DNA of 32,000 nucleotides from Pseudodesulfovibrio mercurii (GCF_000189295.2 NC_016803.1:210001-242000), one strand, 5' to 3'; positions 5,367 to 28,505 are shown, counted from the stretch's first letter. Program-made: numbers and translations. Notes: generated by a model not told the origin, from the sequence alone.

Positions 5367-7061
5367 TCATTCAGCCAATCGGGCCAGCAGGGCCTTTCTG
5401 TCGACCTTTCCGTTTGCATTGAGGGGCATGGTCTCGACCTGGTAAAACCGTTTGACCTGCATGTACGTCGGCAGGTTCTCCTTGCAGACCGCGTCGAGGT
5501 CCGTTTCCGGGCTGCCGCTGTAAAAGACTAGTATTTCATACGGAATGTCCGGGGTGGGCCTATGGCCGATGGCGACCAGATGCTCCAGGCGGGCCGATTT
5601 CCGCAAGAGATGCTCGATCTCCCCCAATTCGACCCGGTGTCCCGCGATCTGGATCTGGTCATCGATCCTGCCGATGAAGACAATGTCGCCGTTCGCGTCG
5701 AGCCGGGCAAGGTCGCCGGTGCGGTACCAACGGTTGTCCTGTTCGCGGGCCGAGGTGTTCAGGGGACAGAATTTGGTGTTCGTGAGGCCGGGATTGCGCC
5801 AATAGCCCGGGGCGAGTTGCGGACCCGCGAGGCACAGTTCTCCGACCTCCCCGTCGGCAACGGGCTTCAGGTTCGGATCGACGATCGCGGCCTCCAGGCC
5901 GGGGAGGGGCTTCCCGATGGGCACGATCCCCTTGTACTCCGCGCCGAGTTCCGTGCCCGGCGAGTAAGTGTAATAGGTGAAATACACGGTGGCTTCGGTG
6001 GGCCCGTAGAGATTCTCGAGAATCGCGTTGGGGGCGGCCAGGGCAAAGTCCCTGGCGGAGCTTTCCAGCAGGGCTTCGCCGCAGAAGAGGGCGAGCCGCA
6101 GGTGCGGAAGGCTGTCGGGCTTGAGCAGTTTGAACTTGGAAAGAAAAACGGCCACGGCCGGAACCGAAAACCAGACGGAGAGCTTGTGCTTGTTGACGAA
6201 ACGATGGGGCAGCATCATTTCGCCTTTGGGGACGCAGAAGATCGAGCCGCCCACGGTCAGGGGCACGAAGATGTCGAATACGGAGAGATCGAAAGTGAAA
6301 TCGAAGAGTTGGGTGAACGAATCTTCCTGATTGAACTGGTATCGGTCGATGGAAGCGGCGATCATGCTGAGGGCGTTGCGGTGCGTGATGCCGACACCCT
6401 TCGGGTCTCCCGTGCTGCCGGAGGTGAAGAGAAGATAGGCGATGTCGCCGGGATCGACCGTCGGCATGCCGAGCGGGGCGTCCTCGGCGGACAGGGCCTT
6501 GAGCCGCGACTCGGGGATGCTCGTGAGCGAAATCTGATCGGGGATGTGCAACCCCTCTTCATGTTCGCCGAGCACGATGATCGAATGGCTTTCGTCCGAT
6601 TCGGCGAGCAGTTCCAGCAGGGAGGCAAGGTGCGCGCCGTCGGTCAGGATGATTTTCGTGCCCGCTTTGGCGATGGTGTTCTGGACGCGTTTTTGCGGGA
6701 AGATCGGACTGAGGGGGACATAGCAATGCCCGGACAGGAGGGCGGCGAGAATGGCCGAGTACATGTGGATCGAGCGGTAGGCGTATATCCCGATCTGCCT
6801 GCTGTCGTTGTCCTTCCCAAGTATCTCATGGGCGATGCATTGAACGCGGGACGCCAATTCCCTGTAGGTATAGGGCGTGTCGTCCACAAAAAGGGCGAGA
6901 TTATCGGGATATGAATCGGCGCTTCTGATGAAGCCGCTGATGAGGGAGTCGGTTTTCAAGATGGATACCCTGGTTTTTCGGTCCGCAGGATGCGTGTGGT
7001 TTTTCACTCGGATCCCAATCGAAAGCCTGGATTTGGTACCAAGAGGACAATCGGCCGTCAA
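5367..7061 (-). CDS. stand-alone adenylate-forming enzyme (DltA-like / NRPS A-domain-like AMP-dependent ligase)
   Basis: Core adenylation motifs are present: LFTSGSTGDPKGV, YGPTE, YRTGDLARLDANGDIVFIGRIDDQIQIAGHRVELGEIE, LNANGKVDRKAL. The track start at 7061 is TTG and there is no in-frame ATG near the N-terminus. GTG at 7007 or TTG at 6959 are alternatives, so the true start is uncertain. Confidence 0.85.
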   Translation of the reverse strand: MTADCPLGTKSRLSIGIRVKNHTHPADRKTRVSILKTDSLISGFIRSADSYPDNLALFVDDTPYTYRELASRVQCIAHEILGKDNDSRQIGIYAYRSIHMYSAILAALLSGHCYVPLSPIFPQKRVQNTIAKAGTKIILTDGAHLASLLELLAESDESHSIIVLGEHEEGLHIPDQISLTSIPESRLKALSAEDAPLGMPTVDPGDIAYLLFTSGSTGDPKGVGITHRNALSMIAASIDRYQFNQEDSFTQLFDFTFDLSVFDIFVPLTVGGSIFCVPKGEMMLPHRFVNKHKLSVWFSVPAVAVFLSKFKLLKPDSLPHLRLALFCGEALLESSARDFALAAPNAILENLYGPTEATVYFTYYTYSPGTELGAEYKGIVPIGKPLPGLEAAIVDPNLKPVADGEVGELCLAGPQLAPGYWRNPGLTNTKFCPLNTSAREQDNRWYRTGDLARLDANGDIVFIGRIDDQIQIAGHRVELGEIEHLLRKSARLEHLVAIGHRPTPDIPYEILVFYSGSPETDLDAVCKENLPTYMQVKRFYQVETMPLNANGKVDRKALLARLAE

Positions 7062-7162: not shown

Positions 7163-8524
7163 TCAGCCGTTGAAAAGGGGATCACCCGTGCCCAGATCCC
7201 GAAGCCGCAGACAATCGCGGTGGAAGAGCAATTCAATCTTGCCGCAGAGCCCGTAACGGTTCTTGGCGACGTGAACATCCACACCGTCCGTCAAGGATTC
7301 ATCGCCTTCGTAATATTCGGCATCCCTGTAGAGCAGCAGGATGGTATCCGCGGCCTGTTCATAGGCTCCATGGCAAAGGAGGTCCGACAGTTTCGGCTCG
7401 TTGTCCTGGCGCTCATCCACTTCGGAATTGAGTTCCGACAAAACAAGGATGGAGATGTTCAACTCGGAAGCCAGATGTTTCAGTGCCCGAGAGATTGCGG
7501 CAGCTTCCTGCTCCAGACCGCCCGCCGGATGCTCCATGTCTTTTATCAGCTGCACACGGTCGATGACGACAAGGCCGATGTCATGTTCGTTTTTCATGTG
7601 CCTGATGCGCGAGGATATCTCAAATGGAGACAACGCCGGGGCGCTGTCGAAAAACAAACCGCTTCGGGATATCCTGCCGGCGGATTTGTACAGTTCAAGC
7701 CAGTCGTCTTCAACGAGTTGTCCCGTTTGTATCTTCATGATCGGGATACCCACATGTATCGCAAGCAGCTTTTCCATTATCCGGTCATGATGCTTGTCGA
7801 GTGAAACATAAAATGTAGGGACGTTTGACAACGCTGCCTTCAGAACAACATTGAGCGCAAAGGGTTGTATGCAGTTGCCTGGCCGTCCCGCGAGGACCGT
7901 CAGGCTTCCTTTTCTCAAGCCCGACAGCAGGGAGTCCAAATCCTCGAATCCCGTCTTGAGTCCCGGCCCCGCATTACCCTGTTTGAATTTGCTGTTAATG
8001 GTGTCAAGGACAGACATTATGACTTCACTCGCTGCTGGTTTGTCGAAGGTTTTGGTCTTTCGTTTGAGCTCGAATAGTTCTTTTTCAGCCTCATTCAACG
8101 TGACCAGCGGAGCCTGAGAATTGTACGCCATGGTTGCTATCTTATTACCTAATTGGATAAGGCTGCGCAGAGTTGCCTTGTCCCGGACCTGTTCGGCGTA
8201 TTTTACTATGTCGCGAGGCGACAATGAACCGCCCTCAGGTGTGCAGGTATGTAAATACTCCCTGAGACAAATGTTCCGATTTTCCGCCTCCACGGCCGTT
8301 TGGACAGTATTCGCGTCAATGGGTTCGTTGTTGTCGTAACACGTTGTCATCGCAGCGAATATGGCCCCATGGTCGGGATGGTAGAAGGATTGTCGATTCA
8401 ATAAATCAATAATCTCATGGAATATCGCATTGTTTCGCAGTACACCTTCAAGCACGGCGTGTTCGGCGAGCAGGTCGAATGGCGGGATTTTCCCGTGGGC
8501 CAAGCTTTCAAAATCCATCGGCAT
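7163..8524 (-). CDS. DnaB-family replicative-helicase paralogue with degenerate ATPase motifs
   Basis: DnaB N-terminal-domain-like AEHAVLEGVLRNNAIFHEIIDLLNRQSFYHPDHGAIFAAM, and a C-terminal RecA-like domain with VVIDRVQLI. The start is chosen at ATG 8524 (MPMDFESL...) with AGGAG 6 nt upstream (ACGACAGGAGATCAACATG). The track start at 8716 adds 64 non-conserved residues. The Walker A position reads GRPGNCIQPF, with no GKT. Confidence 0.8.
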   Translation of the reverse strand: MPMDFESLAHGKIPPFDLLAEHAVLEGVLRNNAIFHEIIDLLNRQSFYHPDHGAIFAAMTTCYDNNEPIDANTVQTAVEAENRNICLREYLHTCTPEGGSLSPRDIVKYAEQVRDKATLRSLIQLGNKIATMAYNSQAPLVTLNEAEKELFELKRKTKTFDKPAASEVIMSVLDTINSKFKQGNAGPGLKTGFEDLDSLLSGLRKGSLTVLAGRPGNCIQPFALNVVLKAALSNVPTFYVSLDKHHDRIMEKLLAIHVGIPIMKIQTGQLVEDDWLELYKSAGRISRSGLFFDSAPALSPFEISSRIRHMKNEHDIGLVVIDRVQLIKDMEHPAGGLEQEAAAISRALKHLASELNISILVLSELNSEVDERQDNEPKLSDLLCHGAYEQAADTILLLYRDAEYYEGDESLTDGVDVHVAKNRYGLCGKIELLFHRDCLRLRDLGTGDPLFNG

Positions 8525-8613
8525 GTTGATCTCCTGTCGTGATGCGTCCAACGGCTCGTTCGAGGAGCACGTTGTTGGGCCTATGAACGACAGGTTAGCC
8601 ACTACGTGGGGCG

Positions 8614-8652
8614 TTTCGGGCCCCACAAAAAAAGTTTTTTGTGGGGCCGAAA
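8614..8652. promoter_or_regulatory. long near-perfect inverted repeat / hairpin in the divergent intergenic region
   Basis: GGCCCCACAAAAAA (8619-8632), AG, then TTTTTTGTGGGGCC (8635-8648): perfect 14 bp arms. It extends to TTTC..GAAA (8614-8652) with one bulged G. There is no flanking U-tract, so it is not a canonical terminator. Confidence 0.5.
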
Positions 8653-8739
8653 TCGCCTCAGTTGGTCTGTATGATCCAATCCGGCAAATCCATGGAAGCA
8701 TCGGCATGGTTGTCACCTGCCGGGTAACCGGACATGCGC

Positions 8740-8755
8740 TTTCAACCGGTTGAAA
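8740..8755. promoter_or_regulatory. perfect 16 bp palindrome (candidate operator)
   Basis: TTTCAACCGGTTGAAA equals its own reverse complement. It lies between the divergently oriented DnaB-like gene and the nuclease cassette. Confidence 0.45.
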
Positions 8756-8888
8756 CGCGCCGAAGAAGGAAATGTCGTTCCAGTTCCGGCTGGGGTGGCT
8801 TGAGATGGTGTCGCCGGCCCGGCCGTACCGGTCGGACGTCCCGATGTCACAAGATCAGGGTTGGCATGGTCCCGTTGAAGGGACGCAG

Positions 8889-8905
8889 GGAGAATGCCAT
8901 TCTCC
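8889..8905. promoter_or_regulatory. 17 bp palindrome next to a putative -35 box (candidate operator)
   Basis: GGAGAATG C CATTCTCC: perfect 8 bp arms around one central base, ending 3 nt before the putative -35 hexamer at 8909. Confidence 0.45.
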
Positions 8906-8908
8906 TTA

Positions 8909-8937
8909 TTAAGCAACCAAAGGCAAATACATATATA
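8909..8937 (+). promoter_or_regulatory. putative sigma70-like promoter for the nuclease cassette
   Basis: TTAAGC, a 17 nt spacer, then TATATA, ending 11 nt upstream of ATG 8949. GAGG lies between. Pattern match only. Confidence 0.3.
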
Positions 8938-8948
8938 GCGAGGCAGCC

Positions 8949-9914
8949 ATGGGCAGAGGTTTGGAGAGATTTTTTATTGATGATCTGAATGCCGGGAAAC
9001 TGGTGCCTGTTTTGGAACGGGTGAAGAAAGACCATACGTTGGATCTACAAATCCGCAATAACGAAATCCATGTATACTACCGTGGCGGCAAACTTGTAGG
9101 CATTGCGCCGAAATCCTCCGCATATTCCTATGACGTTTCATTTGATAAAAGCTATCTCAATGATTTTCATTTGGATATCCCCTTGGTGCCCCCCATAACA
9201 AATGTACAAACAGCAAATGAATGTGTCGCGCAATTCCAATCCATGAAGTTGGCCATGGATTATAACTTTTCCAAATACAAAAAAACCGAGCGCGAGTTCC
9301 AACAATTGATTTCTCGCGAGAACAGCTACTCTTCGGTATCAAACGCTACGGACTATTTCGTCGTGGATGTGGAGTTCGAGAAGAATGTGGGTGCCGTCAC
9401 GACGAAGTTTGATGTGATGGCGATAAAATGGGTGAGCACTTCCGGGGCGCGGAAACTCTCCAAGGGGTACAGGCCGAAGTTGGCGATTGTCGAAGTGAAG
9501 TATGGCGACAGCGCGTTGACGGGGGCTGCGGGGCTGGTTGACCATCTTGAAAAGACCTGTTCCTGTCTGCGGGATCAACGGGTCGCCGAAGACATCAAGG
9601 CGACGATTCTGACCCAGTTCAACCAGAAGCGGGAGCTTGGGCTCGTCCTCTTCTCAAAGGGGGGGAACACAAACGAAGTCGTTGCGCTTGATGACCGGCC
9701 CGAATTTATCTTTCTGCTTGCCAATCACGACCCGGCGTCCACCACTTTGGCCACTGAACTTGCATCCGATGCATTCAAGACGGCATTTGCGGAGCTGCGG
9801 CAATATGCGGATATCCGTTTCGCAATATCGTCCTTCATGGGCTATGGGCTGTTCGAGGAGTGCCTTTTGGACGTGAACGAATTCAAATCAACCTTGGCAA
9901 GGCAGTCCGCCTGA
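8949..9914 (+). CDS. hypothetical protein with PD-(D/E)xK-nuclease-like core (predicted)
   Basis: ATG at 8949 with GAGG upstream; 321 aa. Candidate restriction-endonuclease-fold signature: TEREFQ (E) ... KFDVMAIKW (D), 24 residues, then KLAIVEVKYG (E-x-K). No named family recognised. The stop TGA 9912-9914 overlaps the next ATG. Confidence 0.6.
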   Translation: MGRGLERFFIDDLNAGKLVPVLERVKKDHTLDLQIRNNEIHVYYRGGKLVGIAPKSSAYSYDVSFDKSYLNDFHLDIPLVPPITNVQTANECVAQFQSMKLAMDYNFSKYKKTEREFQQLISRENSYSSVSNATDYFVVDVEFEKNVGAVTTKFDVMAIKWVSTSGARKLSKGYRPKLAIVEVKYGDSALTGAAGLVDHLEKTCSCLRDQRVAEDIKATILTQFNQKRELGLVLFSKGGNTNEVVALDDRPEFIFLLANHDPASTTLATELASDAFKTAFAELRQYADIRFAISSFMGYGLFEECLLDVNEFKSTLARQSA

Positions 9915-11167
9915 TGCGTATAACCATCCACCGCGGGACCAACGAGATCGGCGGCAGTTGTGTCGAAGTCGAATACAACGGCACTCGGCTCCTGCTTGAT
10001 GCCGGAACGCCTCTTGATGATTCCCCGGCCGCACTTCCCGCCGACATCGACGCCTATGCGGGCGTGCTGATTTCACACAGCCATCAGGACCACTACGGAT
10101 TGGTCGAAAGATTGCCGGAAGATGTCCCTCTGTACATGGGGAAGGTCGCCTGGCAGTTCGCGCAAAGCCTGAGGCTCTTTACGAAGACCGGCGATTTGCT
10201 GACGCACAATCCCATCCCTTTGGAAGCTGGTAAAACGTTTCGGGTTGGAGATATCTCCGTCACTCCATACCTGGCCGACCATTCCTCTCCCGATGCCTTT
10301 GGTTTCCTGCTGGAGGCGGGAGGGCGCGTCGTCTACTACACCGGCGATTTTCGCGCTCACGGGAGAAAGTCCAAGACCTTCGACTACCTGTGTTCCCGTC
10401 TGCCGAGGAAAATGGACGCCATCCTTCTTGAAGGGACCATGATGGATCGAGGGAATTCTGCGTTCGCCAGTGAGCGTGAAGTGGAAGAAGGCATGGTCGA
10501 AGCCATTCGTGCGGAAAGCGGAATAGTGTGCCTCAATTGTTCGGCTCAGAATATCGACCGGATGGTTTCCGCATTCCGCGCCGCCAAGCGGTCCGGCAGA
10601 ATCCTTGTCGTGGACATCTACACGGCGTGGATCCTGAGGTTGGCCCAACAGCTATCAGCCAACATCCCCGACATCAATTGGGACGGCATGCGCGTGCTTT
10701 CCCATAACAGGCCCGCGGCCGGGTACTATCGCAATGTGAAGGAGCACGCCGAGTTCTTTGGCGGCTTCCTCCAGGACCTCTACAACTCCGGGAATGAGCT
10801 TTGGGTGCAGAACCTCGTTGATTCTCCGTCGAAATATCTCATCAAGTTGAGTGATTACTGGCTGGCCGACATCCTCGACAGGCTTCCCGGGATATCCTCG
10901 ACCATCATCTATTCGCAGTGGGCCGGATATCTTGAGGAGGGGACGCCGCAGTACAATGCAAAAGCGGCCAGCCTGAAGGGGCGCGAGAACTCGACGTTCA
11001 GGCTGATCCATACCAGCGGACACGCCGTGCGCGAGGACTTGATGCGGCTGGTCGGTTCCGTCGAGCCTCAAACGGTCATTCCGCTCCATACCGAGCACAA
11101 GAACGCGTATGCGGAGTATTTCCCCAATGTTCATGTCCTGGATGACGGGGAAGTTTTCGAACTTTAG
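9914..11167 (+). CDS. beta-CASP-type metallo-beta-lactamase-fold nuclease
   Basis: ATG at 9914 (MRITIHRGTNEIGGSCVEVEYNGTRLLLDAGT) shares one base with the preceding stop (TGATG). MBL motifs: LLLDAG, ISHSHQDHYG (HxHxDH), YLADHS, YYTGDF. Beta-CASP-like motifs: LLEGTMMD, HTSGHA, VIPLHTEH, resembling RNase J/CPSF/Artemis-type enzymes. Confidence 0.85.
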   Translation: MRITIHRGTNEIGGSCVEVEYNGTRLLLDAGTPLDDSPAALPADIDAYAGVLISHSHQDHYGLVERLPEDVPLYMGKVAWQFAQSLRLFTKTGDLLTHNPIPLEAGKTFRVGDISVTPYLADHSSPDAFGFLLEAGGRVVYYTGDFRAHGRKSKTFDYLCSRLPRKMDAILLEGTMMDRGNSAFASEREVEEGMVEAIRAESGIVCLNCSAQNIDRMVSAFRAAKRSGRILVVDIYTAWILRLAQQLSANIPDINWDGMRVLSHNRPAAGYYRNVKEHAEFFGGFLQDLYNSGNELWVQNLVDSPSKYLIKLSDYWLADILDRLPGISSTIIYSQWAGYLEEGTPQYNAKAASLKGRENSTFRLIHTSGHAVREDLMRLVGSVEPQTVIPLHTEHKNAYAEYFPNVHVLDDGEVFEL

Positions 11168-11182
11168 CTACATGGCGGCAGA

Positions 11183-12178
11183 ATGCGCGGGACACAGATA
11201 ATTCAGCTTTTCAAGGGCATCCAGGCCCTGAGCAAGACCAACGGCACGACCATCAATGAGCTCATGGAAGTGCTCGGCAGGAACGACAGGAAAGCGGCCT
11301 ACCGCATGCTCGAGACCATTCAGGGGATCGGTGTGCCGGTGTATGAAGAAAAAATACATGGCCAGCGCGCCAAGAGATGGAAAATCGATGAGACTTCCCG
11401 GCAAAAGCTGGCCGGATTGAACCTGCCCGACTTCACCATATCGCTTCCCGACATCGTTGCCCTTCAATTGCTGCGGTCTCAAGCCACGGTATTCAAAGGA
11501 ACGGAAATTGAGACCACTCTCAATCGGCTGTTTTCGCGGCTCGATGCATTTGTGCCGGAAGGGTTGTTCGCCTCGTTGAGCAAGCTGGGGCCTTTGTTCG
11601 GGTCTTCCAATAAATGGGCGAAAGACTATTCGGGGAAGGAGGGCATACTGGATTCGCTTGTCGAAGCCATGCTCGAGCGCAGGACCTGCCTCGTCAGGTA
11701 TCACTCCTTTCAACAGGGCAGGGAGACGCGGTTCAAGATTGATCCGTTGTATTTCTTTGAATACTCGGGCGGCTTGTATCTTTTCGTCAGGACAACCGCC
11801 TATGACGACATCCGGATTCTGGCCCTTGAACGGGTTCGGGAGGTCGCCCCGACCAGTGACGGATTCGAGGAGCCGAAGGACTTCGATGCTCGGGCCCGGC
11901 TCAGCGAACCGTTCGGCATCATAGCCGATGACCCCATAGAAGCGACGGTTCGCGTGTCGGCCGATCAAGCCCGGTACTTACTGGAGCGCCCGTATTTTCG
12001 AGAACGGGTCGTGGCGGAGGAATCGGATGGCGCGGTCATCGTCCAATTGAACACCTCCGGCCGTCACGACGTTGTCAAATGGATACTCTCGTTGGGATCG
12101 CAGGCGGAAGTGCTTGGACCGCCCGAACTCAGGGCTGATGTGAAGAAAGAGCTTGAAGCGACGTTGTCGGGGTACTGA
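11183..12178 (+). CDS. WYL-domain transcriptional regulator (wHTH-WYL-WCX architecture)
   Basis: N-terminal winged HTH (TINELMEVLGRNDRKAAYRMLETIQGIGVPVYEE). Central WYL-like block (CLVRYHSFQQGRETRFKIDPLYFFEYSGGLYLFV). C-terminal extension. ATG lies 15 nt after the MBL stop. Confidence 0.85.
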   Translation: MRGTQIIQLFKGIQALSKTNGTTINELMEVLGRNDRKAAYRMLETIQGIGVPVYEEKIHGQRAKRWKIDETSRQKLAGLNLPDFTISLPDIVALQLLRSQATVFKGTEIETTLNRLFSRLDAFVPEGLFASLSKLGPLFGSSNKWAKDYSGKEGILDSLVEAMLERRTCLVRYHSFQQGRETRFKIDPLYFFEYSGGLYLFVRTTAYDDIRILALERVREVAPTSDGFEEPKDFDARARLSEPFGIIADDPIEATVRVSADQARYLLERPYFRERVVAEESDGAVIVQLNTSGRHDVVKWILSLGSQAEVLGPPELRADVKKELEATLSGY

Positions 12179-12265
12179 TTCCCGAGAGGCGCACTGCACG
12201 TCCGAGCAAAAGGTCCGCAAAAACGAAAAAGGATTCGCCGAGTTGTCCTAACCCCTTGCCTTTTC

Positions 12266-12318
12266 TGGGCGGGAGGAGAGGCTTTGAACCCCCGATCTAT
12301 GGGGCCCGAGCGGGATGC
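12266..12318 (-). pseudogene. decayed 3' half of a tRNA-Pro-like gene (no 5' half present)
   Basis: 12269-12314 aligns without gaps to 27101-27146 of the intact tRNA-Pro with 36/46 identities, including TGG(CCA end), the T arm GGTTCAAAG and GATCT. The anticodon stem is no longer complementary. No CCTCCCG partner for the acceptor stem is found upstream. Confidence 0.55.
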
Positions 12319-12518
12319 TTTTCGTGTCTCCTTGTAATGATTAAGTTTATTCGTCACATGGGAAATACCCATAAACCGGATCCCAAATGCGACAAGACAT
12401 GTGACGGAAACCATTCTCGTGGTTTTGGGGGGAGTTTGATGTGTGGGGATACCGTGAGTGCCGTTCCTCCTTGGTGGGGGCAAATGATTTGAGCGATTCC
12501 TTCTTGAAATGTCCCGGG

Positions 12519-12992
12519 ATGCCCATTGCGAGAAGCCTAACGAATGAAGATGTAACGCATGTTCTGGCTGCTCTGTTTACGACGAGAGAACAGCCAGACT
12601 ATCTGCGATCCGACAACGGCTCCGAGTTCGCGGCTGAAGCCCTCTGCGGATGGTTGAAGGATGTCGGAGTCAATACTGCATCCATTAAACCCGGTAGCCC
12701 TGGGGAGAATGGCTATAGCGAAAGCTTCAATGGCAAATTGCCGGAGGGATGGATTCACGGAGAGCTTCTCTGTTCGTTGAAAGAAGCACAGATCGTGATC
12801 GAAAATCGGCGGCGGGAATACGACACGATAAGGCCTCACGGCTCATTGGAATACCAACCCCCAGCGTCGGTCGCGCCCCTCGGGGTGGAGTTGGGCTCGG
12901 GCTGGACAACCTCGGCAGGAAGAGTGCAGACTGGCATAAGCCCGGACCATAAACCGGGGACAGGTCAACATGTGGACGGTTTTTGTCTGTGA
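12519..12992 (+). mobile_element. truncated IS transposase (C-terminal part of an rve/DDE integrase core, IS3-family-like), pseudogene
   Basis: DYLRSDNGSEFAAEALCGWLKDVGVNTASIKPGSPGENGYSESFNGKL...EAQIVIENRRREYDTIRPHGSLEYQPPA matches the second-D to E region and the YN..RPH tail of DDE transposases. The HTH and first catalytic D region are absent. Conserved positions are eroded (SPGENGY where I recall SPWENGY in this motif). Confidence 0.7.
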
Positions 12993-14125
12993 AGAAGATT
13001 CGTGTCATTGTGAACGCGATCCCATTGATGAACGTGAAGACGGGGATCGGACGGTACGTTGAATCGCTGTACTCGACGATGGAGAGACAGTATTCGGATC
13101 TGTTCGAGTTCCGCTATTTCGACGGCGTCGGTGCCGCAAGTTCCCTTCCCTCCGGGGCACGGGACCTTGACCACTGGTCCTCGAAGGCCGCCTTGTTCTG
13201 GAAACTGCCGCCGTCGCTATCGTTTCTGATCCGGCTGGCCCTGCACCACGTGCGCGAACGCAGGCTGCTGTCCCTGTCAAGGAAGTTCGACGTCTACCAC
13301 GAGACGGCCATGTTCCCCTTTCGCGTGCAGGATGGCGTGGCCACGCTGCTGACCGTGCATGATCTTTCCCTGGAGCGATATCCGCAGTTCCATCCCGCCG
13401 AGCGGGTTCGCTATTTCAACAGATTTTTCGGCAAACGGCTGCGCCTGGCCGACGCGTTCGTGTCGGTTTCGGACTTTACCCGCCATGAGCTGCTGTCCGC
13501 GCACGACCTGGATTCGAGGACCGTCGCGGTGACGCCGCTGGCCTGCGACAAGGACCTGTTCCACCACCGTCAGGGGGAAGAAGTCGAGGCGGTCAAGCGG
13601 GAGCTCGGCATACGCGGGGACTACTTCCTGTCCGTCGGCACGAACGACCCCAGGAAGAACCTCCCCCTCATCTTCGAGGCCGTTCACGGGAGCCCGGACA
13701 CGCAGATGGTCATCGCGGGCTGGTCCGGTTGGGGCGGAAAGCTCCCCGGGGGAGTTCGCGATGTGGGCTATGTCTCCGACCAGACCCTTGCCTGCCTCTA
13801 CAGCGGGGCCACGGCCCTGGTCTATCCCAGCCTCTACGAGGGGTTCGGCCTGCCGGTGCTGGAGGCCATGTCCTGCGGCTGTCCCGTTGTCCTGACCCGG
13901 GAGGCCAGCCTGCCCGAGGTGGCCGGGGAGGCCGGTTGCTACCTGAGCGGCCCCCGCGCCGTGGAGGAGCTCGTCTCCATCATGGAGCGGCTCGGGACGG
14001 ATGAAGCGTTCCGCCGGGAGAAGTCGGCCGCGTCCCTGGAACGGGCCGAACTCTTCTCCTGGGAGCGGACAGCGCTGCTGACCAAGGAGGCCATCCTGGC
14101 CGCCTACAGGGCGAAGCACCCGTGA
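12989..14125 (+). CDS. glycosyltransferase family 4 (GT1-superfamily)
   Basis: C-terminal signature [23 protein letters not shown]. The N-terminus KKIRVIVNAIP is typical. The track start at 12983 is TTG; GTG at 12989 (MKKIRV) is preferred. Confidence 0.85.
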   Translation: MKKIRVIVNAIPLMNVKTGIGRYVESLYSTMERQYSDLFEFRYFDGVGAASSLPSGARDLDHWSSKAALFWKLPPSLSFLIRLALHHVRERRLLSLSRKFDVYHETAMFPFRVQDGVATLLTVHDLSLERYPQFHPAERVRYFNRFFGKRLRLADAFVSVSDFTRHELLSAHDLDSRTVAVTPLACDKDLFHHRQGEEVEAVKRELGIRGDYFLSVGTNDPRKNLPLIFEAVHGSPDTQMVIAGWSGWGGKLPGGVRDVGYVSDQTLACLYSGATALVYPSLYEGFGLPVLEAMSCGCPVVLTREASLPEVAGEAGCYLSGPRAVEELVSIMERLGTDEAFRREKSAASLERAELFSWERTALLTKEAILAAYRAKHP

Positions 14126-14129
14126 CGGT

Positions 14130-15407
14130 CTACCCCATCCTTCGCAAGCGCATCTTGTTCAGCGAGAACTCTCCGCTCTTGTTGCCGGTCCGCAGGACAA
14201 ACTCGAACTTCGTCAGGTCGCGGTAGGCGATGAAGTCGTATTCGTTCCGGCCCGGGGTCAGGTGCAGCGATTCGACCTTGTAGCCGAAGCGTTCGCTGAT
14301 ATCGAGATCAAAGGAGCCGTTGATTTCGCCGTCGATGGTCAGCCGATAGGCTCCCCTGGGCAGATACCAGTACGGACCGTGGAAGAGTATATCGCCCTCG
14401 CGGCGGTCCCTGGCCTGCGAACGGTATGCTCCGTTTTCCATGCCGCCATTGAGGATGTTGAAATCGCACGGGAAAATATCAACGAAGTTTCTTTCGAGCC
14501 CGCCTTCCTCGATCCGTTCCGGGCGTCCGGCCAGGAAATACCCTCCGGTGGTCGTGAACTCGGCGTGGTCGGTCCGCCGGATGGTCGTCCCCGCAATGGC
14601 GTAGATCTGGTAGCCGAGGGAACCGAGCAGCTCGAACAGATCGTCGGCGATGTCGCTGTCGGCCGCCAGCTTTTCGAAGAGGAGAACCGCTTTCGGGGAT
14701 CTTTCAAGCACGGGGAGCATGCCGGTCAGGGCCTTGAGCTCATGGCCTTCGACGTCGAGTTTGATCATGCTGACGCTCGTGCCTTCGGGCAGGACGCTGT
14801 CGAGGGTGCGGACCTGGACCACGTCGCCGTTGCCGTCGCCGCCTTCGAGACTTCCCCCGCCGGCGTGGTCCTTGGGCAGCGACAGGCTGGCTTCGCCGTC
14901 GCGGTTGGAGATGGCGCAGCTGTTGATGTCGATGATGTGCGTGTACCCATTCAGAAAGACGGAGCGCGAAAACAGCTGCCGGATCCTGTCGTTGGGCTCA
15001 AAGGCGTGAATCCTGCCCTGGCGGAGATACGGCGCCAGCCGGAGAGAGTAGACCCCGAGGTTCGCCCCCACGTCCAGGGCGATCCCGTCGGGCGTGCGGT
15101 AGGAAAGAAATACTCCCCATTCTTCCTCTTCATACATGCCGCCGTTGATGAAGTTGAGCGGGCAGCCGATGTCGTCCGTGTTCACGAAGATCGGCGTCTC
15201 ATCCTTCAGGTAGGTCAGCGATTCATTCCTGCCCAGATAGGACGACGTCCGGTTCTTGATGAAATCGACGTCGTTCAATATCCGGTCGAGCTTCCGTTCC
15301 ACTTCGTTCTGCCACATCGTTTGAATAATACTCACCGCATCTTCCTGTTCTTTAAGGTTTTCGTTTATTGTGTCATGCCCGGCCCGGAGCCATCGCCCCG
15401 ACCGCAT
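14130..15407 (-). CDS. FkbM-family SAM-dependent methyltransferase with extra C-terminal domain
   Basis: ALDVGANLGVYSL (SAM-binding glycine loop), IHAFEPN, IKLDVEGHELKAL: typical FkbM/TIGR01444 motifs. About 150 further residues follow (HGPYWYLPRGAYRL...). The start is uncertain: ATG 15407, GTG 15335 with AGGAAG upstream, or ATG 15317. Confidence 0.8.
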   Translation of the reverse strand: MRSGRWLRAGHDTINENLKEQEDAVSIIQTMWQNEVERKLDRILNDVDFIKNRTSSYLGRNESLTYLKDETPIFVNTDDIGCPLNFINGGMYEEEEWGVFLSYRTPDGIALDVGANLGVYSLRLAPYLRQGRIHAFEPNDRIRQLFSRSVFLNGYTHIIDINSCAISNRDGEASLSLPKDHAGGGSLEGGDGNGDVVQVRTLDSVLPEGTSVSMIKLDVEGHELKALTGMLPVLERSPKAVLLFEKLAADSDIADDLFELLGSLGYQIYAIAGTTIRRTDHAEFTTTGGYFLAGRPERIEEGGLERNFVDIFPCDFNILNGGMENGAYRSQARDRREGDILFHGPYWYLPRGAYRLTIDGEINGSFDLDISERFGYKVESLHLTPGRNEYDFIAYRDLTKFEFVLRTGNKSGEFSLNKMRLRRMG

Positions 15408-15436
15408 CGAAGCGGCGGGCGACGGGCCGCATGCCG

Positions 15437-16714
15437 TCAGTACAGGGCCGCCAGCCGCTCCCGGTATCGTTCGGGAGCGAACCGCCCGGCCTGTTTTTTC
15501 CCTTTGGCGATGCAGCGTTCCCGCAGCTCGCGGTCGTTTTCAAAGGCAAGAATGGCGTCCGTGATCTCCCGGGGCCGATAAGGATCGACATACAGCGGCG
15601 CGTCGCCCCCGACTTCTGGTAACGAACTCGTGTTCGAGGTGATCACCGGCGTGCCCAGGGACATGGCCTCGAGCACCGGCAGCCCGAACCCTTCGTAGAG
15701 TGACGGGAAAACGAGTCCCCTGGCCCCCTGGATCAGGGCGACGAGGGCGTCGAAGGGCACGTATTCGAGGTGGATGATCTTCCGCCCCGGCGCATGCGCC
15801 TCCATTGTCCGCTTCTCCCGTTCATATTTCCAGCCGAACGGCCCGACAATGACCAGCGGGCTTTGCACGTTCGCGGCCAGATAGGCCTCGATCAGTGTCC
15901 CGTGGTTCTTTTTGGGCTCGATCGCGCCGACGGCGATGAAATATCCGTCCGGAGACAGGCCGTGCGTCCCGTCGAGAAACCGGGCCAGCGCCGTTTCCTC
16001 CCGGATCAGGGAAGGCGGTATCTCCACGGCCTGGTACGTATTGTGCGTCTTGGCCCCGGCCTCCGGGCACAGGGCGGCGATGTCCCTTTTCGAGTTCTCG
16101 GAGACCGTGATGATCTTGTCCGCCGTTTTGACGATCCTGCGCAGCAGTCGCATGTACAGCGGCTTGTCGTCGAGGGTCGTGTCCGGCAGCTTGGCCGGGA
16201 TGACGTCGTGGATGGTGTAGTAGTTGCGCCCGTTGGCCAGCCTGATGGGCAGGGGGGAGGTCCAGTGGGCCACATCGATGCCGGGTACGTCGATGGTCAG
16301 GAATCGCCCGGTCAGAAAGAAGATGGCCCAGGCGGCCGTGTACACCGCCGTGCTGCTCAGCACTCGGCAATGCGGCGGCACCCGGCCTTCATGGGGCCGC
16401 TTGTCGGCGGACCCGTCCGTCCTGATCTCATGGCAGGTCGCACCGCGAACGAGGTCCCTGAACGAGATCTTCAGGATATCCATTTTCTCTCGGAGCGTCG
16501 CAGTGGAAAATCCCGTGTACGCATGGGGGGCGTGAAAGGAGATTTCATCAAGCGGGCCGCCTTGTCCGCCGCTTCCCGGAGTTGCGTGGTAGCCGTACAG
16601 GACGGACATGTCGTGCCCAAGGGCCGTCAGGGACGCCGTCAGGTTCCGGGCATAGGTGGAGATTCCGGTTCCCTCCGGTTGGCCCAATTTATGTCCGTCC
16701 ACCAATATTTTCAT
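15437..16714 (-). CDS. glycosyltransferase family 4
   Basis: [26 protein letters not shown]-terminus and [33 protein letters not shown] signature. ATG at 16714. Confidence 0.85.
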
Positions 16715-16766
16715 TTCGAGTCCATGGTGCAGCCATGCGGGATATCCACTTGGTGCGGCCGGATTC

Positions 16767-17486
16767 CTAGATTTTCGCGTATTGCCCGGCCACGTCGGCG
16801 GGATCGCCGTCCGCGACGCATTGCCCCTTGTCCAGCAGGATCATCCGGCTGCAATTCCCCATGAGAAAATGGAGGTCATGGGAGACGATGATAGCCGTGG
16901 TCCCCTGTTTGAGCAATTTGTTGATCCGGCCGGTGCATTTCTGGGCAAAGGCCGCGTCGCCCACGCCGAGCACCTCGTCGATCAGCAGGACGTCCGGGTC
17001 TACGGACGTGGCCAGGGAAAAGGCCAGCCGGGCGTACATGCCCGACGAGTACGTCTTCACGGGCTCGTGGAAGAAGCGGCCGATGTCCGCGAATTCGATG
17101 ATGTCGTCCATCCGCCGGGCCAGCTCGGCCTTGCCCAGCCCCATCAGCAGCCCGGACAACCGGCAATTCTCGAGCCCGGTCAACTCGGGGTGGAACCCGA
17201 TGCCGAGTGAGAGCAGGGGGACGACCTTGGCGTCCTTCTGGCGGCGGATGGTCCCGGAGGTCGGGTTGATGATCCCGGACAACAGCCGTAGCAGGGTGCT
17301 TTTCCCCGCCCCGTTCCGGCCGATGACGCCGACGATCTCATGGTCGTCGATCTCAAGGCTCAGCGACTTCAGCGCCTCGTGGTAGGCTGGTTTCCTCCCC
17401 AGGAACACCCGCGACAGAAGTGTGCCGCATCCCTTGTTGCGCACCAGAGAGTATCTGACGGAAACGTTATCGAGTGTATATCTCAT
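16767..17486 (-). CDS. ABC transporter ATP-binding protein, polysaccharide/O-antigen export type (Wzt/TagH-like)
   Basis: Walker A GRNGAGKST, signature YSSGMYARL, Walker B LLIDEVLGVGD, H-loop SHD. The true start is ATG 17486 (MRYTLDNVSV), overlapping the permease stop as ATGA. The 479 aa track ORF is an artefactual N-terminal extension through the permease gene. Confidence 0.9.
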   Translation of the reverse strand: MRYTLDNVSVRYSLVRNKGCGTLLSRVFLGRKPAYHEALKSLSLEIDDHEIVGVIGRNGAGKSTLLRLLSGIINPTSGTIRRQKDAKVVPLLSLGIGFHPELTGLENCRLSGLLMGLGKAELARRMDDIIEFADIGRFFHEPVKTYSSGMYARLAFSLATSVDPDVLLIDEVLGVGDAAFAQKCTGRINKLLKQGTTAIIVSHDLHFLMGNCSRMILLDKGQCVADGDPADVAGQYAKI

Positions 17487-18256
17487 AGGTAAAAATAGAT
17501 TTTCGAGCGGACCCTGCGCAGAAACGCCGCGCTGCACAACCATACACCTGCCGCAATGCCGGATGAGATCAGCCAGTCGGCCCGGCTCGGGAATCGTTTC
17601 CAATAAAGGGGGTCCTGGAAAAGGTGGGCGAAACTCGTCATCGGATGGAACCGCAATAGCTGGCCGTACAGCGAATGCGGATCGATGTTGGATTCCATGT
17701 TCAGGATGATCGAGGAGAAGAAGAGCAGCATCAGTCCCATCTGGACTATCGGCTTTATGTCGCGGACAAAGACGAAAATCGTCGCCGACAGTATGGCCAG
17801 CCCGTTGGCGAGCACGAGCCAGACGAGAAAGGCGAAGGGGAGGACGAGTAGCGGACCGCCCGCCGGGGTGCCGAGGAGGAGGAAGAAGACGGACCCCACG
17901 GCGAAGGTGCACAGCAGGTCCCACACCCCGATGACGGTGCTGACGCAGGGGAAGGTCACAGCGGGCGTATCCATCTGCGTCAGCAGCCAGCGGCCGCCGA
18001 CGATGGACTCCATCCCGTTGAGCGTGGTGCTCTCCAGAAATTTCCATGGAATGAGGCCGCTGAAGAGGTACAGGGCATACTCGGCCAAGGGCTGTTTGTT
18101 GATCTGCGCGAAGACGATGGAGAGCACACCCAGGAACATGAACGGTTCGCCGACCGCCCAGAAGAACCCCAGCATCGCGTTGCGATACCGCAGGATGAAC
18201 TGGCACTTCGCCAGTCCCATCACGACCCGAATGAAATGACTAACCGTATAATTCAT
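17483..18256 (-). CDS. ABC-2 type polysaccharide export permease (Wzm-like)
   Basis: Six hydrophobic segments and an ABC-2-style N-terminus, LRYRNAMLGFFWAVGEPFMFL. The preferred start is ATG 18256 (MNYTVSHF), 17 nt after the upstream stop. Confidence 0.85.
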   Translation of the reverse strand: MNYTVSHFIRVVMGLAKCQFILRYRNAMLGFFWAVGEPFMFLGVLSIVFAQINKQPLAEYALYLFSGLIPWKFLESTTLNGMESIVGGRWLLTQMDTPAVTFPCVSTVIGVWDLLCTFAVGSVFFLLLGTPAGGPLLVLPFAFLVWLVLANGLAILSATIFVFVRDIKPIVQMGLMLLFFSSIILNMESNIDPHSLYGQLLRFHPMTSFAHLFQDPLYWKRFPSRADWLISSGIAAGVWLCSAAFLRRVRSKIYFYL

Positions 18257-18273
18257 GTAACAATGCCAAGTTA

Positions 18274-20040
18274 TTAGCAATTGGTTAATTTGGATTCGAC
18301 CATTTTCAGGATGTCCTCGACGCGGATCGCCTTCATGCATTGCGATTCTTTTGTCCCGGAGAGCGTGCAGGGGGAATATTCATTTCTCCAGCACGGCACG
18401 CAGCGTATGGTGTCGCTTGCGTCGATGTAATCGACGCTCGGATAATGCTTGGTCCGCTGCTCGGCGCTCGTCGGTCCGAACAGGGCAACGCACGGAATGC
18501 CGAGGGCTCCGGCGACATGCAGGAAGCTTGAATCCGGGCAGATGACGACGTCGCACAGGGAGAATATGGCCAGTGCCTCCCGAAGCGGCCTGTCGTCGAT
18601 CGGATGGACGTTTTCAAGCTCGAAGCCCGTAATGGGCTTGTTGTGAAACAGGAACACGGAGTGTTTCCGAGACAGAATCCGGATCAGATCGGCAAAGTGC
18701 GGGTAATCCCGGTACCGTTCATCGGAGTGGAGCTGGATGCCGATCCGTTTCCGGCAGTTTGTCCCGACCGACGAGACGAAGCGCTTCGCGGCGTCGGATT
18801 CCTCCTGCGTCACATGGTAATACGTTTTCCAGTCCCCGCCGCTCGGGCCCTTGATGCCCATGGCCTTGCCGAATATTTCGATCCTGGACAGTTTCACATC
18901 CGGCGCCGTCAGCCCTTCGATGCGGCTTGCCGGGCAGGTCGTGAGGTCGTAGAGGGCGCTGTAGTCGTCCCTGCGGAAGACCCTTTCGTTGATATCCGTG
19001 ACGGTGATCCCCGGCAGGCCCTTCAGCAGCGGCTTGAATTGTCCGGGGACGGCAAAATGCACCGGCCTGGCGGGATTCCTGGCCTGTAGCTCCGTCAACC
19101 CGGCCGTCATCATGAGAATATCGCCGATCCCTCCCATCGCGCGCGTGACCAGGATCGGCAGTCGCCCTTCGGCCTTCGCGCCCTGGCCGTCCCCCTTGGA
19201 AAGCATGGCGAGGGTGTCGCGGCCGACGCGATTGGATGAAAAGCCGAGAGCGCGGTAACCGAATCCGACGGCGCGGGTGATCCACGGCCCGACGAGCGGC
19301 AGCTTCCCCAGTATCGAGGCGCAGCAAAGGGGAAATATAAGCAGCTTGGCGGCCGGGGTCGCTTCTGCGTTGCGGGCGGTCAGGATCGGCAACACGCCGC
19401 GCGAGGCGATGATCAGTTTTTGGGCCCGGGTGACGGTGCGGATGCTGCTCGCCAGTCTCCACTGCAGCCGCATGAAGACGTCGGCATTGCCCGAATGGAG
19501 CTCGGCCTCCGCGTAGCGGTGGACAACATCCGCAAACAGGGATTTGTCGGCGAACAGATAGGGCCTGTCCACATAGTGCGCCAGGATGTCCGCGGCCTTT
19601 CCGGGTTCTCCGAGCTGGAGCGCCGTCGCAGCCATGTCCAGCGAAGCCCGCTGTTCCCATTCCGGGAACCGCCCCGCCGCCTGGCTCTTGGCTTTTCCCA
19701 GCGCCTCCAAGGCCTGTTCAAAAAGCTTTTGCCGGGAAAAGTAGTTCGCCGAATCAACATGGGCGAGAACCGTCTCGATCTGTCCCGGATGCTTTGCGAG
19801 GAGGCCGTCCAGGGCAACGGGAAGCAGCCTCAGTGCTCGGGCGGTCCGGGCCTCGAGCGTATGCGCGTCCTCGCATGTCGCGTTCTCTATGAGCCCCCGC
19901 ACATAGGCCAAGAGGATGTACTTCGAGTCAATGGAGGACAACTCGACATCGGATGTCTTGATGTACTGGTACACATACCTGTTGTCTCCGTTGTATGCCA
20001 GTTTCTCTGTGGTCTTGATGTCCAGTGTCATTGTATCCAT
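18274..20040 (-). CDS. glycosyltransferase family 9 (heptosyltransferase-like) with about 290 aa helical N-terminal extension
   Basis: The C-terminal half carries GT9 hallmarks: ILVTRAMGGIGDILMMTAGLTEL and VICPDSSFLHVAGALGIPCVALFGPTS. The N-terminal half is helical-repeat/TPR-like. ATG at 20040. Confidence 0.8.
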   Translation of the reverse strand: MDTMTLDIKTTEKLAYNGDNRYVYQYIKTSDVELSSIDSKYILLAYVRGLIENATCEDAHTLEARTARALRLLPVALDGLLAKHPGQIETVLAHVDSANYFSRQKLFEQALEALGKAKSQAAGRFPEWEQRASLDMAATALQLGEPGKAADILAHYVDRPYLFADKSLFADVVHRYAEAELHSGNADVFMRLQWRLASSIRTVTRAQKLIIASRGVLPILTARNAEATPAAKLLIFPLCCASILGKLPLVGPWITRAVGFGYRALGFSSNRVGRDTLAMLSKGDGQGAKAEGRLPILVTRAMGGIGDILMMTAGLTELQARNPARPVHFAVPGQFKPLLKGLPGITVTDINERVFRRDDYSALYDLTTCPASRIEGLTAPDVKLSRIEIFGKAMGIKGPSGGDWKTYYHVTQEESDAAKRFVSSVGTNCRKRIGIQLHSDERYRDYPHFADLIRILSRKHSVFLFHNKPITGFELENVHPIDDRPLREALAIFSLCDVVICPDSSFLHVAGALGIPCVALFGPTSAEQRTKHYPSVDYIDASDTIRCVPCWRNEYSPCTLSGTKESQCMKAIRVEDILKMVESKLTNC

Positions 20041-20071
20041 GCTCTGTTTTTATGTTTGAAGTTGCCGGTTT

Positions 20072-22959: not shown

Positions 22960-23036
22960 GTTCAGGTCAACTCCTTGTCAACGTTCACGGGGGGCGAACC
23001 GCCATCTCCAAACGGGCCGGACGAGGTCCGGTTCGT

Positions 23037-23411
23037 TCACCGGTCTTCGCCGTCCGTCTTGTCCCCGTCTTTCCCGAGGTCCATGAGCCGCGCTTCGTAT
23101 GCAGCCATTTTCTGCGTCAGGACCCGTATCCTGGTTTCATGGCGTGTCAGTTGGATCTCCAGGGTGAGCAGCTTGACGAGCAGGATGCACAGGCTGACGA
23201 TAATCAGCAGAACCGGCGGATAGTGCACGCCGAGCAACCCGCCCAGCCAGTCGAGGATGGACGGAAATATCCCGAACAGGATGAGACAGAACACGGCGCC
23301 CAGCCAAAGCGCGGTCTGGTACACGCCGATGCGCTGCCTGCGGATCAGCCAGATGATCACGCCGCCGACGACCAGGGCGATCGCCGTGGAGACTTCATTA
23401 AAAAGCGTCAT
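23037..23411 (-). CDS. small membrane protein, DUF2304-like (GT2-associated)
   Basis: 124 aa with three hydrophobic helices followed by a coiled-coil tail (LEIQLTRHETRIRVLTQKMAAYEARL). It overlaps the upstream GT2 gene by 14 nt. This size, topology and pairing fit my recollection of DUF2304. Confidence 0.65.
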   Translation of the reverse strand: MTLFNEVSTAIALVVGGVIIWLIRRQRIGVYQTALWLGAVFCLILFGIFPSILDWLGGLLGVHYPPVLLIIVSLCILLVKLLTLEIQLTRHETRIRVLTQKMAAYEARLMDLGKDGDKTDGEDR

Positions 23412-24123: not shown

Positions 24124-24161
24124 TCTACTCTCGGCTAGGGTTGAAGGGCAGGGGCTCAAGT

Positions 24162-24193: not shown

Positions 24194-24215
24194 TCAGATT
24201 CGCCGGTTGGTGCGG

Positions 24216-27089: not shown

Positions 27090-27097
27090 GTCTTTTC

Positions 27098-27174
27098 TGG
27101 TCGGGATGAGAGGATTTGAACCTCCGATCTCTGCGTCCCGAACGCAGCGCTCTACCAGACTGAGCCACATCCCG
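27098..27174 (-). tRNA. tRNA-Pro (anticodon CGG)
   Basis: The reverse complement folds as a cloverleaf: CGGGATG TG GCTC AGTCTGGTA GAGC G CTGCG TTCGGGA CGCAG AGATC GGAGG TTCAAAT CCTCT CATCCCG A CCA. It has the C1-G72 pair and A73 typical of bacterial tRNA-Pro, and an encoded CCA. Confidence 0.9.
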
Positions 27175-28467: not shown

Positions 28468-28505
28468 CGAACGACCCGCGAAATGGAAGGGGGAGGTCTG
28501 GCAAC

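Follow-up and report, generated by a model that had tools for sequence, protein, structure and literature searches.

The question raised by a 32,000-nucleotide stretch of DNA from Pseudodesulfovibrio mercurii ND132 (NC_016803.1:210001-242000; hereafter the window, from whose first letter coordinates are counted) is what three adjacent genes within it do together, a set that an initial annotation had singled out as a candidate undescribed defence or DNA-processing system. We find that the first two of these genes, g1 and g2, form a conserved unit, and we predict, with a probability of roughly 55%, that this pair is a self-contained, horizontally mobile two-nuclease module acting as an innate anti-phage or anti-plasmid defence. 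The three genes are as follows.

8949..9914, plus strand: g1 (DND132_0198), 321 aa, unnamed family, N-terminal alpha/beta domain and PD-(D/E)xK-like core
9914..11167, plus strand: g2, 417 aa, by homology an RNase J/EF2904-like beta-CASP nuclease of the metallo-beta-lactamase (MBL) fold
11183..12178, plus strand: g3, 331 aa, WYL and WCX transcription regulator

The arrangement is as first described. All three open reading frames (ORFs) run in the same direction, the TGA stop codon of g1 (9912-9914) overlaps the ATG of g2 (9914-9916) as TGATG, and g3 starts 15 nt past the stop codon of g2. The product of g1 is identical to that of locus tag DND132_0198.

A pattern scan covering 185,579 species, each represented by a single genome, yielded 239 confirmed stretches encoding g1 relatives, the best 80 of which were examined for their loci. 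These 80 loci span the Desulfuromonadales, Bacteroidota, Chloroflexota, Clostridia, Planctomycetota, lineages of the candidate phyla radiation and one Bathyarchaeota metagenome-assembled genome (MAG). The initial annotation had let its proposal hinge on whether homologues of g1 and g2 keep company elsewhere, and they do: a g2 homologue lies directly adjacent to g1 on the same strand in 65 of the 80 loci, preceding g1 in 39 of them and following it in 26, often with overlapping codons (the median intergenic gap of 71 adjacent pairs is 0 nt). Gene order follows clade membership, and the pairwise distances among g1 proteins correlate with those among their g2 neighbours (Mantel r=0.385, a value reached by 0 of 999 permutations). 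All-against-all clustering of 1053 neighbouring ORFs revealed no third gene common to more than a handful of loci. The conserved unit is g1 plus g2, inherited, rearranged and exchanged together across bacteria and archaea.

The proteins encoded by g1 and g2

The g1 protein matches no profile in Pfam, NCBIfam or PADLOC-DB v2.0.0. Likewise, 33 members of its family gave no Pfam match even at E≤5, and the family profile matched none of the PDB sequences. The family comprises 368 word-indexed matches; an exhaustive scan at E≤1e-3 gave 2025 cluster representatives (clusters of 50% identity), 639 of which reach E≤1e-30. Across 33 sequences that are 38-61% identical to g1, the invariant residues are E114, R115, E116, Q118, Q119, D140, E142, D155, E182, K184, H199, Q226, N259 and G298-Y-G300. 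The AlphaFold2 model (predicted local distance difference test score 90.6, predicted template modelling score 0.90) consists of an N-terminal domain (approximately residues 1-85) of two helices and four strands, which carries the motif IR-N-x-I-x-I-YYRGG, and a core of alpha-beta-beta-beta-alpha-beta topology (helix 113-126, strands 136-147, 150-160 and 177-185, helix 196-208, strand 252-258); a model of the domain alone has the same topology. E114 and E116 fall on helix 1, D155 on strand 2 and E182-x-K184 on strand 3, the places expected for a PD-(D/E)xK enzyme.

Foldseek searches with the whole g1 model and with its core against PDB and BFVD returned nothing at E≤0.001. The best weak matches were BsmI (E=0.02) and HamA (8vxy, E=0.06) for the whole model and SfsA (E=0.017, probability 0.91, template modelling (TM) score ~0.3) for the core; further weak matches included Can2/Card1 and several annotated viral PD-(D/E)xK proteins in BFVD. 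SfsA is a DNA-binding protein of the PD-(D/E)xK fold, represented by 4dap and 4dav (probabilities 0.91 and 0.82), but its similarity to the g1 core is slight (E ~0.02, TM ~0.33, 11-13% identity) and its N-terminus is an OB-fold (oligonucleotide/oligosaccharide-binding fold), whereas that of g1 is an alpha/beta domain. Because the topology and the invariant residues fit but the Foldseek matches, mostly to restriction-fold proteins, are weak, g1 is rated as a probable, highly diverged member of the PD-(D/E)xK fold. Of the restriction-endonuclease active site proposed initially, the topology and the invariant E, D and ExK residues stand, while a statistically significant structural match is missing (best E ~0.02); the spacing D-x24-E-V-K given for it must be corrected to D155-x26-E182-V-K184.

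One variant of g1 is fused C-terminally to a DEDDh RNase_T exonuclease and is encoded directly after a g2-type MBL gene (L170 6001-7548, P0337), an architecture that would fit a degradative role. A DUF2779 (Cas4-like) fragment lies upstream of this pair. A profile of the g1 N-terminal domain, used in a search for other fusions, collected 66 short proteins (P0380-P0445), which turned out to be fragments or split ORFs and contained no new effector architectures; some of them sit on contigs of several hundred kb.

The g2 protein matches Lactamase_B_2 (1.3e-14) and RMMBL (2.8e-7) in Pfam, and its nearest PDB chains are EF2904 (2AZ4, 4.8e-20) and RNase J, with alignments that span the beta-CASP insert. 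The complete HxHxDH signature and the beta-CASP-like motifs seen by the initial annotation are borne out: the MBL motifs (D29, H55xH57xD59H60, H123 and D145) and the beta-CASP-type motifs A (E173, in EGT), B (H366 and H370, in HTSGHA) and C (H392, in PxH) are all invariant over 28 sequences at 27-41% identity. The Pfam Beta-Casp model itself did not match g2 at E≤0.01, and the assignment is therefore based on the RNase J/EF2904 homology, the RMMBL match and motifs A-C. The spacing of these motifs is presumably near that of Bacillus subtilis RNase J1. Motif C is a histidine, the state found in RNA-acting beta-CASP members, which is a weak predictor of substrate. The start codon is ATG 9914 and not the upstream GTG 9860, because all 27 aligned homologues begin at an equivalent M(K/R)xxIHRG. 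The g2 family is approximately ten times larger than that of g1 (at least 3717 proteins at E≤1e-10), and g2 matched no PADLOC-DB v2.0.0 family at E≤0.01. For EF2904, the literature that we searched describes no function; the only mention is a brief one, in a paper on the structure of a different beta-CASP protein.

Since some sources label g2 homologues 'ribonuclease J', and g2 shares with RNase J and EF2904 the MBL motifs, the beta-CASP cassette with motifs A, B and C and the RMMBL signature, g2 might be a paralogue of RNase J that serves housekeeping RNA turnover next to an unrelated g1. However, g2 scores far below the equivalog cut-offs (65.1 bits, 4e-18, against 400 for TIGR00649; 59.5 against 820 for RnjA) and ends at motif C, without the C-terminal dimerisation domain of RNase J. 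It also differs from RNase J in its location in an island of low GC content and in its PD-(D/E)xK-like partner gene. The adjacency to g1 across phyla, in both orders and with correlated divergence, largely refutes the housekeeping explanation, to which we give hardly any credence.

The variable partner and the surroundings of the pair

To view the pair from the other side, 80 metagenome loci were anchored on g2 homologues, and 78 of them were scored for neighbours. A gene of the g1 family adjoins g2 in 33 of the 78. Other loci have alternative partners of approximately 250-320 aa, from at least three families, that match nothing in Pfam: cl21 and cl24, each in four loci, and cl6, which directly adjoins g2 in three loci and is separated from it by a 153-aa cl14 gene in five more. 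Comparison with the g1 core by hhalign aligned the catalytic strands of cl21 (P=3e-4) and cl24 (P=4e-3), and all three families show an acidic helix, an aspartate and then a hydrophobic-E-x-K strand (D...hhh-E-x-K). These features are suggestive of, though they do not prove, a PD-(D/E)xK relationship with g1. The regular expression D...hhhExK was also tried for sorting the remaining g2 neighbours and was dropped as too strict, as it matched only 11 of 28 true g1 members. Another g2-centred architecture occurs in L097, L099 and L100, where a divergent WYL gene lies upstream of g2 and no g1-family gene is recognisable; in these loci, as well as in L050 and L091, small PcfJ-like proteins follow g2.

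A replacement at the partner position is seen in a sister island in an uncultured Pseudodesulfovibrio (L168), which carries a DnaB-like gene, g2 and the WYL gene in the same arrangement as the window (62%, 82% and 80% amino acid identity, respectively). In a blastn comparison, the window matches L168 over 7165-8675 (71%) and 9914-12312 (77%) and nowhere between, with similarity resuming exactly at the g2 ATG. The intervening slot of L168 encodes a different 325-aa protein with a D...ELK motif of its own and a divergent g1-like gene (5995-7010) split into ORFs of 93 and 238 aa (2e-5 and 8e-11 with the g1 hidden Markov model), the shorter of which is the N-terminal domain and the longer the core. 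Because the slot differs up to the start of g2, and because g1 has a lower GC content than g2 (49.8% vs 56.9%), we conclude that cassettes have been exchanged at the partner position. Thus, g2 is the conserved component and the PD-(D/E)xK-like partner is the variable one. By analogy, such exchange would be typical behaviour for a conflict-system component that provides specificity or sensing.

The surroundings of the pair agree with the suggestion that it belongs among defence genes and on mobile elements: restriction-modification (R-M), CRISPR-Cas, MADS, Bil-like and AbiE genes and integrases are found nearby, in a qualitative survey. Among the two neighbours on either side, PADLOC models matched mad2 of MADS four times, as well as a type I methyltransferase, BnzA, IetA, REase_II, HerA, PsyrT and DpdF. 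In one locus ScoMcrA_N is encoded upstream and a YjiV-type helicase downstream; another has the order integrase, partner, g2, DUF6933, AbiE (an AbiEii neighbour); and one element with integrase and relaxase carries g1, g2, PDDEXK_4, Fic and HigBA as cargo near DndB. The pair of JC022 is preceded by DUF3987, MobC and a relaxase. Geobacter sulfurreducens subsp. ethanolicus (L085 4552-9524) has a co-directional block of a BrxR-type WYL gene, an RlaP nucleotidyltransferase, cpYpsA (SLOG-like), g2 and g1, which adjoins an integrase and a Bil-like (ubiquitin-like conjugation) defence cluster; its g1 is 507 aa long, with a C-terminal extension of approximately 190 aa to which no fold was assigned. 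Solo g1 genes were found beside cas3 of a type I-E system and, in three unrelated genomes (L022, L054 and L087), directly downstream of a type I hsdR in the same orientation; one solo locus reads hsdMSR, g1, SIR2. The g1 protein may also serve as an accessory of R-M systems. Phages and plasmids essentially lack the pair: g1 went unmatched among 50,697 phage records and 72,556 plasmids, and 2.9 million viral contigs contained just three matches.

The tight coupling and overlap of the two genes in both orders, their occurrence on mobile elements among HigBA and AbiE modules and the lack of a self-protection gene could also point to a toxin-antitoxin or addiction module, in which one nuclease, probably g2, would be the toxin and the other protein would restrain it and so stabilise the island. 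We consider this quite improbable. With 321 and 417 aa, both proteins are large, and the catalytic residues of both are invariant, features that would be unusual in an antitoxin; g1 is often solo, and g2 often stands with non-homologous partners. Moreover, such a module would overlap with abortive-infection defence rather than exclude it.

A further group of neighbours had at first suggested DnaE (DNA polymerase III alpha) as a third component, found in a 14-locus BLAST single-linkage cluster. This candidate was rejected when NCBIfam models showed the cluster to be a chimera of a housekeeping DnaE (L003), PolC of one lineage (L017/L053/L058), fragments with PHP and finger regions (L036, L088) and unrelated ADP-ribosylglycohydrolases (L015, L148, L150). 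The pair does lie beside DnaE in a Cloacimonadales MAG and beside PolC in Clostridium MAGs, and the fragments next to it are permuted or truncated DnaE (in Geobacter L036, residues 569-786 followed by 3-306); these polymerase-gene neighbours may be insertion hotspots or recombination leftovers. The ADP-ribosylglycohydrolase (DraG/Tri1-like) genes adjoin the pair at L015 3867-4823, L148 19-1311 and L150 7456-9297, the last being fused to an inositol-monophosphatase-like domain.

A proposed two-nuclease mechanism and its relation to known systems

If g1 and g2 act together in defence, the N-terminal domain and PD-(D/E)xK core of g1 would recognise and cut invader nucleic acid or a structure born of infection, and g2 would then load on the resulting 5'-monophosphate ends and degrade in the 5'->3' direction ('cut, then chew'). 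Cleavage by PD-(D/E)xK enzymes leaves 5'-phosphate ends, and beta-CASP enzymes of the RNase J and SNM1 types are 5'-monophosphate-dependent 5'->3' exonucleases. Because the ends produced by the former suit the latter, a division of labour between cutting and degradation is the most economical model. In the island type seen here, g3 would control expression, probably via an inverted repeat at 8607-8660, in the way that other defence operons are controlled by BrxR and CapW.

Several points weigh against this defence reading. A g2 neighbour is missing from approximately 19% of g1 genes, and for many g2 genes no g1 is recognisable, so the two can act apart or with other partners. The hand-off of 5'-phosphate ends from g1 to g2 is reasoned from the properties of both enzyme families, and the nuclease fold of g1 has no significant structural match (best E ~0.02, TM ~0.3). 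No self-protection gene accompanies the pair. Genes of the same loci lying 5 kb or more from the pair, taken as a distance control, matched numerous PADLOC models as well (type I S subunits, mad5 and MTase_I); the control thus provides no valid background, and the enrichment in defence islands stays qualitative. Finally, the pair may have been named more recently than the PADLOC models of 2023.

A wider interpretation, which we offer tentatively and to which we assign less than even odds, is that the g2-type nuclease and its interchangeable partners (g1, cl21, cl24 and cl6) would make up an unnamed modular family of two-nuclease immune systems of bacteria and archaea, in which the hypervariable PD-(D/E)xK subunit would confer specificity or act as sensor, make the first cut and hand over the 5'-phosphate end to the conserved RNase J-like exonuclease. 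In one subtype, infection cues would be linked to expression or activation through the WYL regulator, with a possible contribution from the catalytically dead DnaB-like protein. If true, this would be the first stand-alone, non-CRISPR defence based on a beta-CASP enzyme.

The initial annotation recognised no named system in this gene combination, and neither do we: no assignment was obtained from Pfam, NCBIfam or PADLOC-DB v2.0.0 (2023), the only PADLOC matches in g1-g3 being generic WYL models for g3, and the literature searched contained neither such a combination nor any description of the g1/g2 pair or its DND132 locus tags. R-M systems of types I-III were rejected, as no methyltransferase is encoded between 7163 and 12312, in agreement with the initial annotation, and none is conserved beside the pair across loci. 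Shedu and other one- or two-gene PD-(D/E)xK nucleases resemble g1 in having a nuclease core after a family-specific N-terminal domain, in their location in defence islands and in the lack of a methyltransferase; however, g1 has no detectable sequence or profile relation to Shedu and is coupled to a second nuclease gene in approximately 80% of its loci.

Two known immune systems with an MBL-fold nuclease were compared with the pair. HamMAB is a variant of Hachiman (HamA, a DUF1837 nuclease, and HamB, a helicase) with an MBL-fold nuclease gene upstream (PMC12799240, PMC13069673); its HamM, an MBL pro-nuclease of the ComEC type, is switched on by a trypsin-like protease to which it is fused (PMC12799240). 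The resemblance to our pair lies in a PD-(D/E)xK effector within a small operon and in the rank of HamA (8vxy) among the top weak fold matches of g1. However, the pair has neither helicase nor protease, and HamM is not a beta-CASP protein. Identity with Hachiman/HamMAB or a trypsin-MBL system was rejected, as g1 and g2 match neither DUF1837 nor any PADLOC Ham model and no helicase or protease gene is conserved beside them. MBL nucleases appear in immunity, in the literature searched, only as this ComEC-type protease-activated HamM/Avs1a family.

The second system is type VII CRISPR-Cas, whose Cas14 is, like g2, a beta-CASP nuclease and is recruited by a Cas5/Cas7 complex guided by CRISPR RNA. 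In the literature searched, Cas14 is the only beta-CASP nuclease with an established prokaryotic immune role. The g2 protein is not Cas14, as the cas14_MBL_CASP model gave 19.8 bits against a cut-off of 800 over the N-terminal 68 residues, and the islet contains neither cas genes nor a CRISPR array.

On the basis of sequence comparison, the pair is probably an undescribed small nuclease-based cassette of defence islands. If it protects cells, it would represent a new class of innate immunity built on a beta-CASP/RNase J-like fold so far tied only to type VII CRISPR-Cas, and it would supply a function for two orphan families, that of g1 (~2000 clusters at 50% identity) and the EF2904-like MBL proteins (at least 3700). 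Its modularity also lends itself to study as a natural experiment, the effector being conserved and the content of the partner slot swapped precisely at a start codon. If the pair does not serve defence, its conservation across bacteria and archaea points to an undescribed pathway of nucleic-acid processing.

The regulator and the island at tRNA-Pro

Apart from the three genes, the following features of the window bear on the origin and control of the pair.

7163..8524, minus strand: DnaB-like helicase paralogue, transcribed divergently from g1, Walker A degenerate
8607..8660, no strand: inverted repeat (26-nt arms) between the divergent DnaB-like gene and g1
~12246..12312, minus strand: decayed copy of the tRNA-Pro 3' half plus downstream bases, 57/67 identity to 27076-27144
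12441..12992, plus strand: truncated rve/rve_3 integrase fragment of an insertion sequence (IS) (rve_3 5.8e-18, rve 1.2e-6, partial profile coverage)
27098..27174, minus strand: intact tRNA-Pro(CGG) (ARAGORN; Rfam 69 bits)

The g3 protein had been described as a winged helix-turn-helix (HTH)-WYL regulator. The regulator part of this description stands, with matches to WYL (9.6e-12, residues 155-222) and WCX (5e-20, residues 251-328), as well as to PafBC and other WYL structures. For its N-terminus no Pfam HTH model matches, and the PADLOC WYL model PDLC01457 aligns from residue 7. Like BrxR, CapW, PafBC and DriD, g3 combines WYL and WCX domains in a small operon with genes that it may control; it differs from them in lying downstream of the pair and not upstream or divergent. 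As an integral third component, which the initial annotation took it to be, g3 does not hold up: genes of the WYL cluster occur in just 14 of 160 related loci (~9%), in upstream, divergent or downstream positions. It is an accessory to the pair in this island type.

The arms of the inverted repeat (TGGGGCGTTTCGGGCCCCACAAAAAA and TTTTTTGTGGGGCCGAAATCGCCTCA, 26 nt each) are 85% complementary and are separated by a 2-nt spacer. The repeat is kept in L168, with a change at the matching position in both arms, and borders the exchanged g1 slot on its left, the DNA homology to L168 ending 15 nt beyond it, at 8675. It may serve as operator for the WYL regulator or delimit recombination at the exchangeable slot. 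Scans of 8600-12500 for promoters and terminators gave nothing exceeding the shuffled expectation.

As the nearest solved relative of g3 is PafBC (6sj9, 5.8e-10), the pair could instead be a cassette for the repair of DNA damage or stress under a PafBC/DriD-type WYL activator, in which a structure-specific PD-(D/E)xK endonuclease and an SNM1/Artemis-like 5'->3' beta-CASP exonuclease would process lesions, for instance crosslinks or blocked ends. The beta-CASP enzymes include such DNA-repair nucleases, namely SNM1 and Artemis; the best fold match of the g1 core, SfsA, was crystallised with DNA; and PHP/DnaE-derived ORFs or replicative polymerase genes stand beside pairs in L003, the L017 group, L036 and L088. 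Nevertheless, we judge repair a distinctly unlikely role. The distribution is rare, patchy and driven by transfer rather than conserved by lineage, the WYL gene accompanies only a small fraction of the loci, g2 combines an RNA-type motif C histidine with an RMMBL match, the 'DnaE-like' association is the single-linkage artefact described above, and a hypervariable partner slot suits conflict genes, not repair genes.

The divergently transcribed gene to the left of g1 matches DnaB_C (9.7e-62) and the DnaB N-terminal domain (9.9e-18) but scores below the DnaB equivalog cut-off (316.6 vs 385 bits). It is, as noted initially, a divergently transcribed DnaB paralogue; its Walker A motif is degenerate, GRPGNCIQP in place of GxxxxGK[ST], without the lysine and the threonine. 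The L168 orthologue reads GRPGNCKRA at this site, so that a DnaB-like paralogue, apparently impaired as an ATPase, has been conserved beside the nuclease pair in two islands. Because that orthologue aligns from residue 65 of the ORF, the gene most likely begins near 8524 and not at GTG 8716, the ORF being over-extended by 64 codons. A DnaB_C-like gene with an intact Walker A (GLPSTGKS) is present in a third locus, L042. As a part of the system, the DnaB-like gene was rejected: it recurs only in the window, L168 and L042 among ~160 loci, and the motif that is dead in the window is intact in L042. Probably, it belongs to the backbone of an integrated element, outside the nuclease module.

These neighbours bear on the possibility that the pair is a DNA-processing accessory of integrative elements that would act, for example, on ends or replication intermediates in their excision, replication or transfer together with the element's DnaB-like helicase, and not in immunity. 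In both the window and L168, the pair lies between the DnaB-like gene and the tRNA-Pro attachment site, with additional HTH_17 and HTH_36 genes in L168; L042 has the WYL gene, the DnaB_C-like gene, g1 and g2 in a row; the mobilisation genes of JC022 precede its pair, PcfJ-like genes flank g2 in five loci and integrases are frequent near the pair. This reading is unlikely, although it is the least improbable of the alternatives that we weighed. The DnaB-like genes are confined to three loci, no element gene is common across loci, and many pairs are found in plain chromosomal R-M, CRISPR or MADS surroundings. In addition, defence systems are typical cargo of such elements, and the DnaB-like protein of the window has lost its Walker A lysine.

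The right end of the islet bears out the decayed tRNA-Pro half and the IS fragment reported by the initial annotation: 57 of 67 aligned positions of the former match 27076-27144, overlapping the intact tRNA-Pro, and the latter is a truncated rve integrase ORF. The 'AT-rich DNA' of the same description is merely relatively GC-poor, the islet having 54% GC and g1 49.8% as compared with 58-63% in the flanks. The WYL gene of L168 is followed immediately by the tRNA-Pro and a chemotaxis region that match window positions 27049-31998 (blastn), and we therefore conclude that the islet (7163-12312) originally adjoined tRNA-Pro. The decayed half is the old junction, an attachment-site remnant at the right end of the islet, the intact tRNA-Pro is an integration hotspot, and the 14.7 kb between them (12313-27048), beginning with the IS fragment, is a later insertion that parted the islet from the intact tRNA-Pro.

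The sister genome lacks this insertion, which encodes an 828-aa STT3/PglB-like oligosaccharyltransferase, four GT4/GT2 glycosyltransferases and a GT9 heptosyltransferase-like protein, along with an FkbM-type methyltransferase, an ATP-binding cassette ATPase and an autotransporter beta-domain protein. Judged by this gene content, it looks like a horizontally acquired glycosylation island, possibly for protein N-glycosylation.

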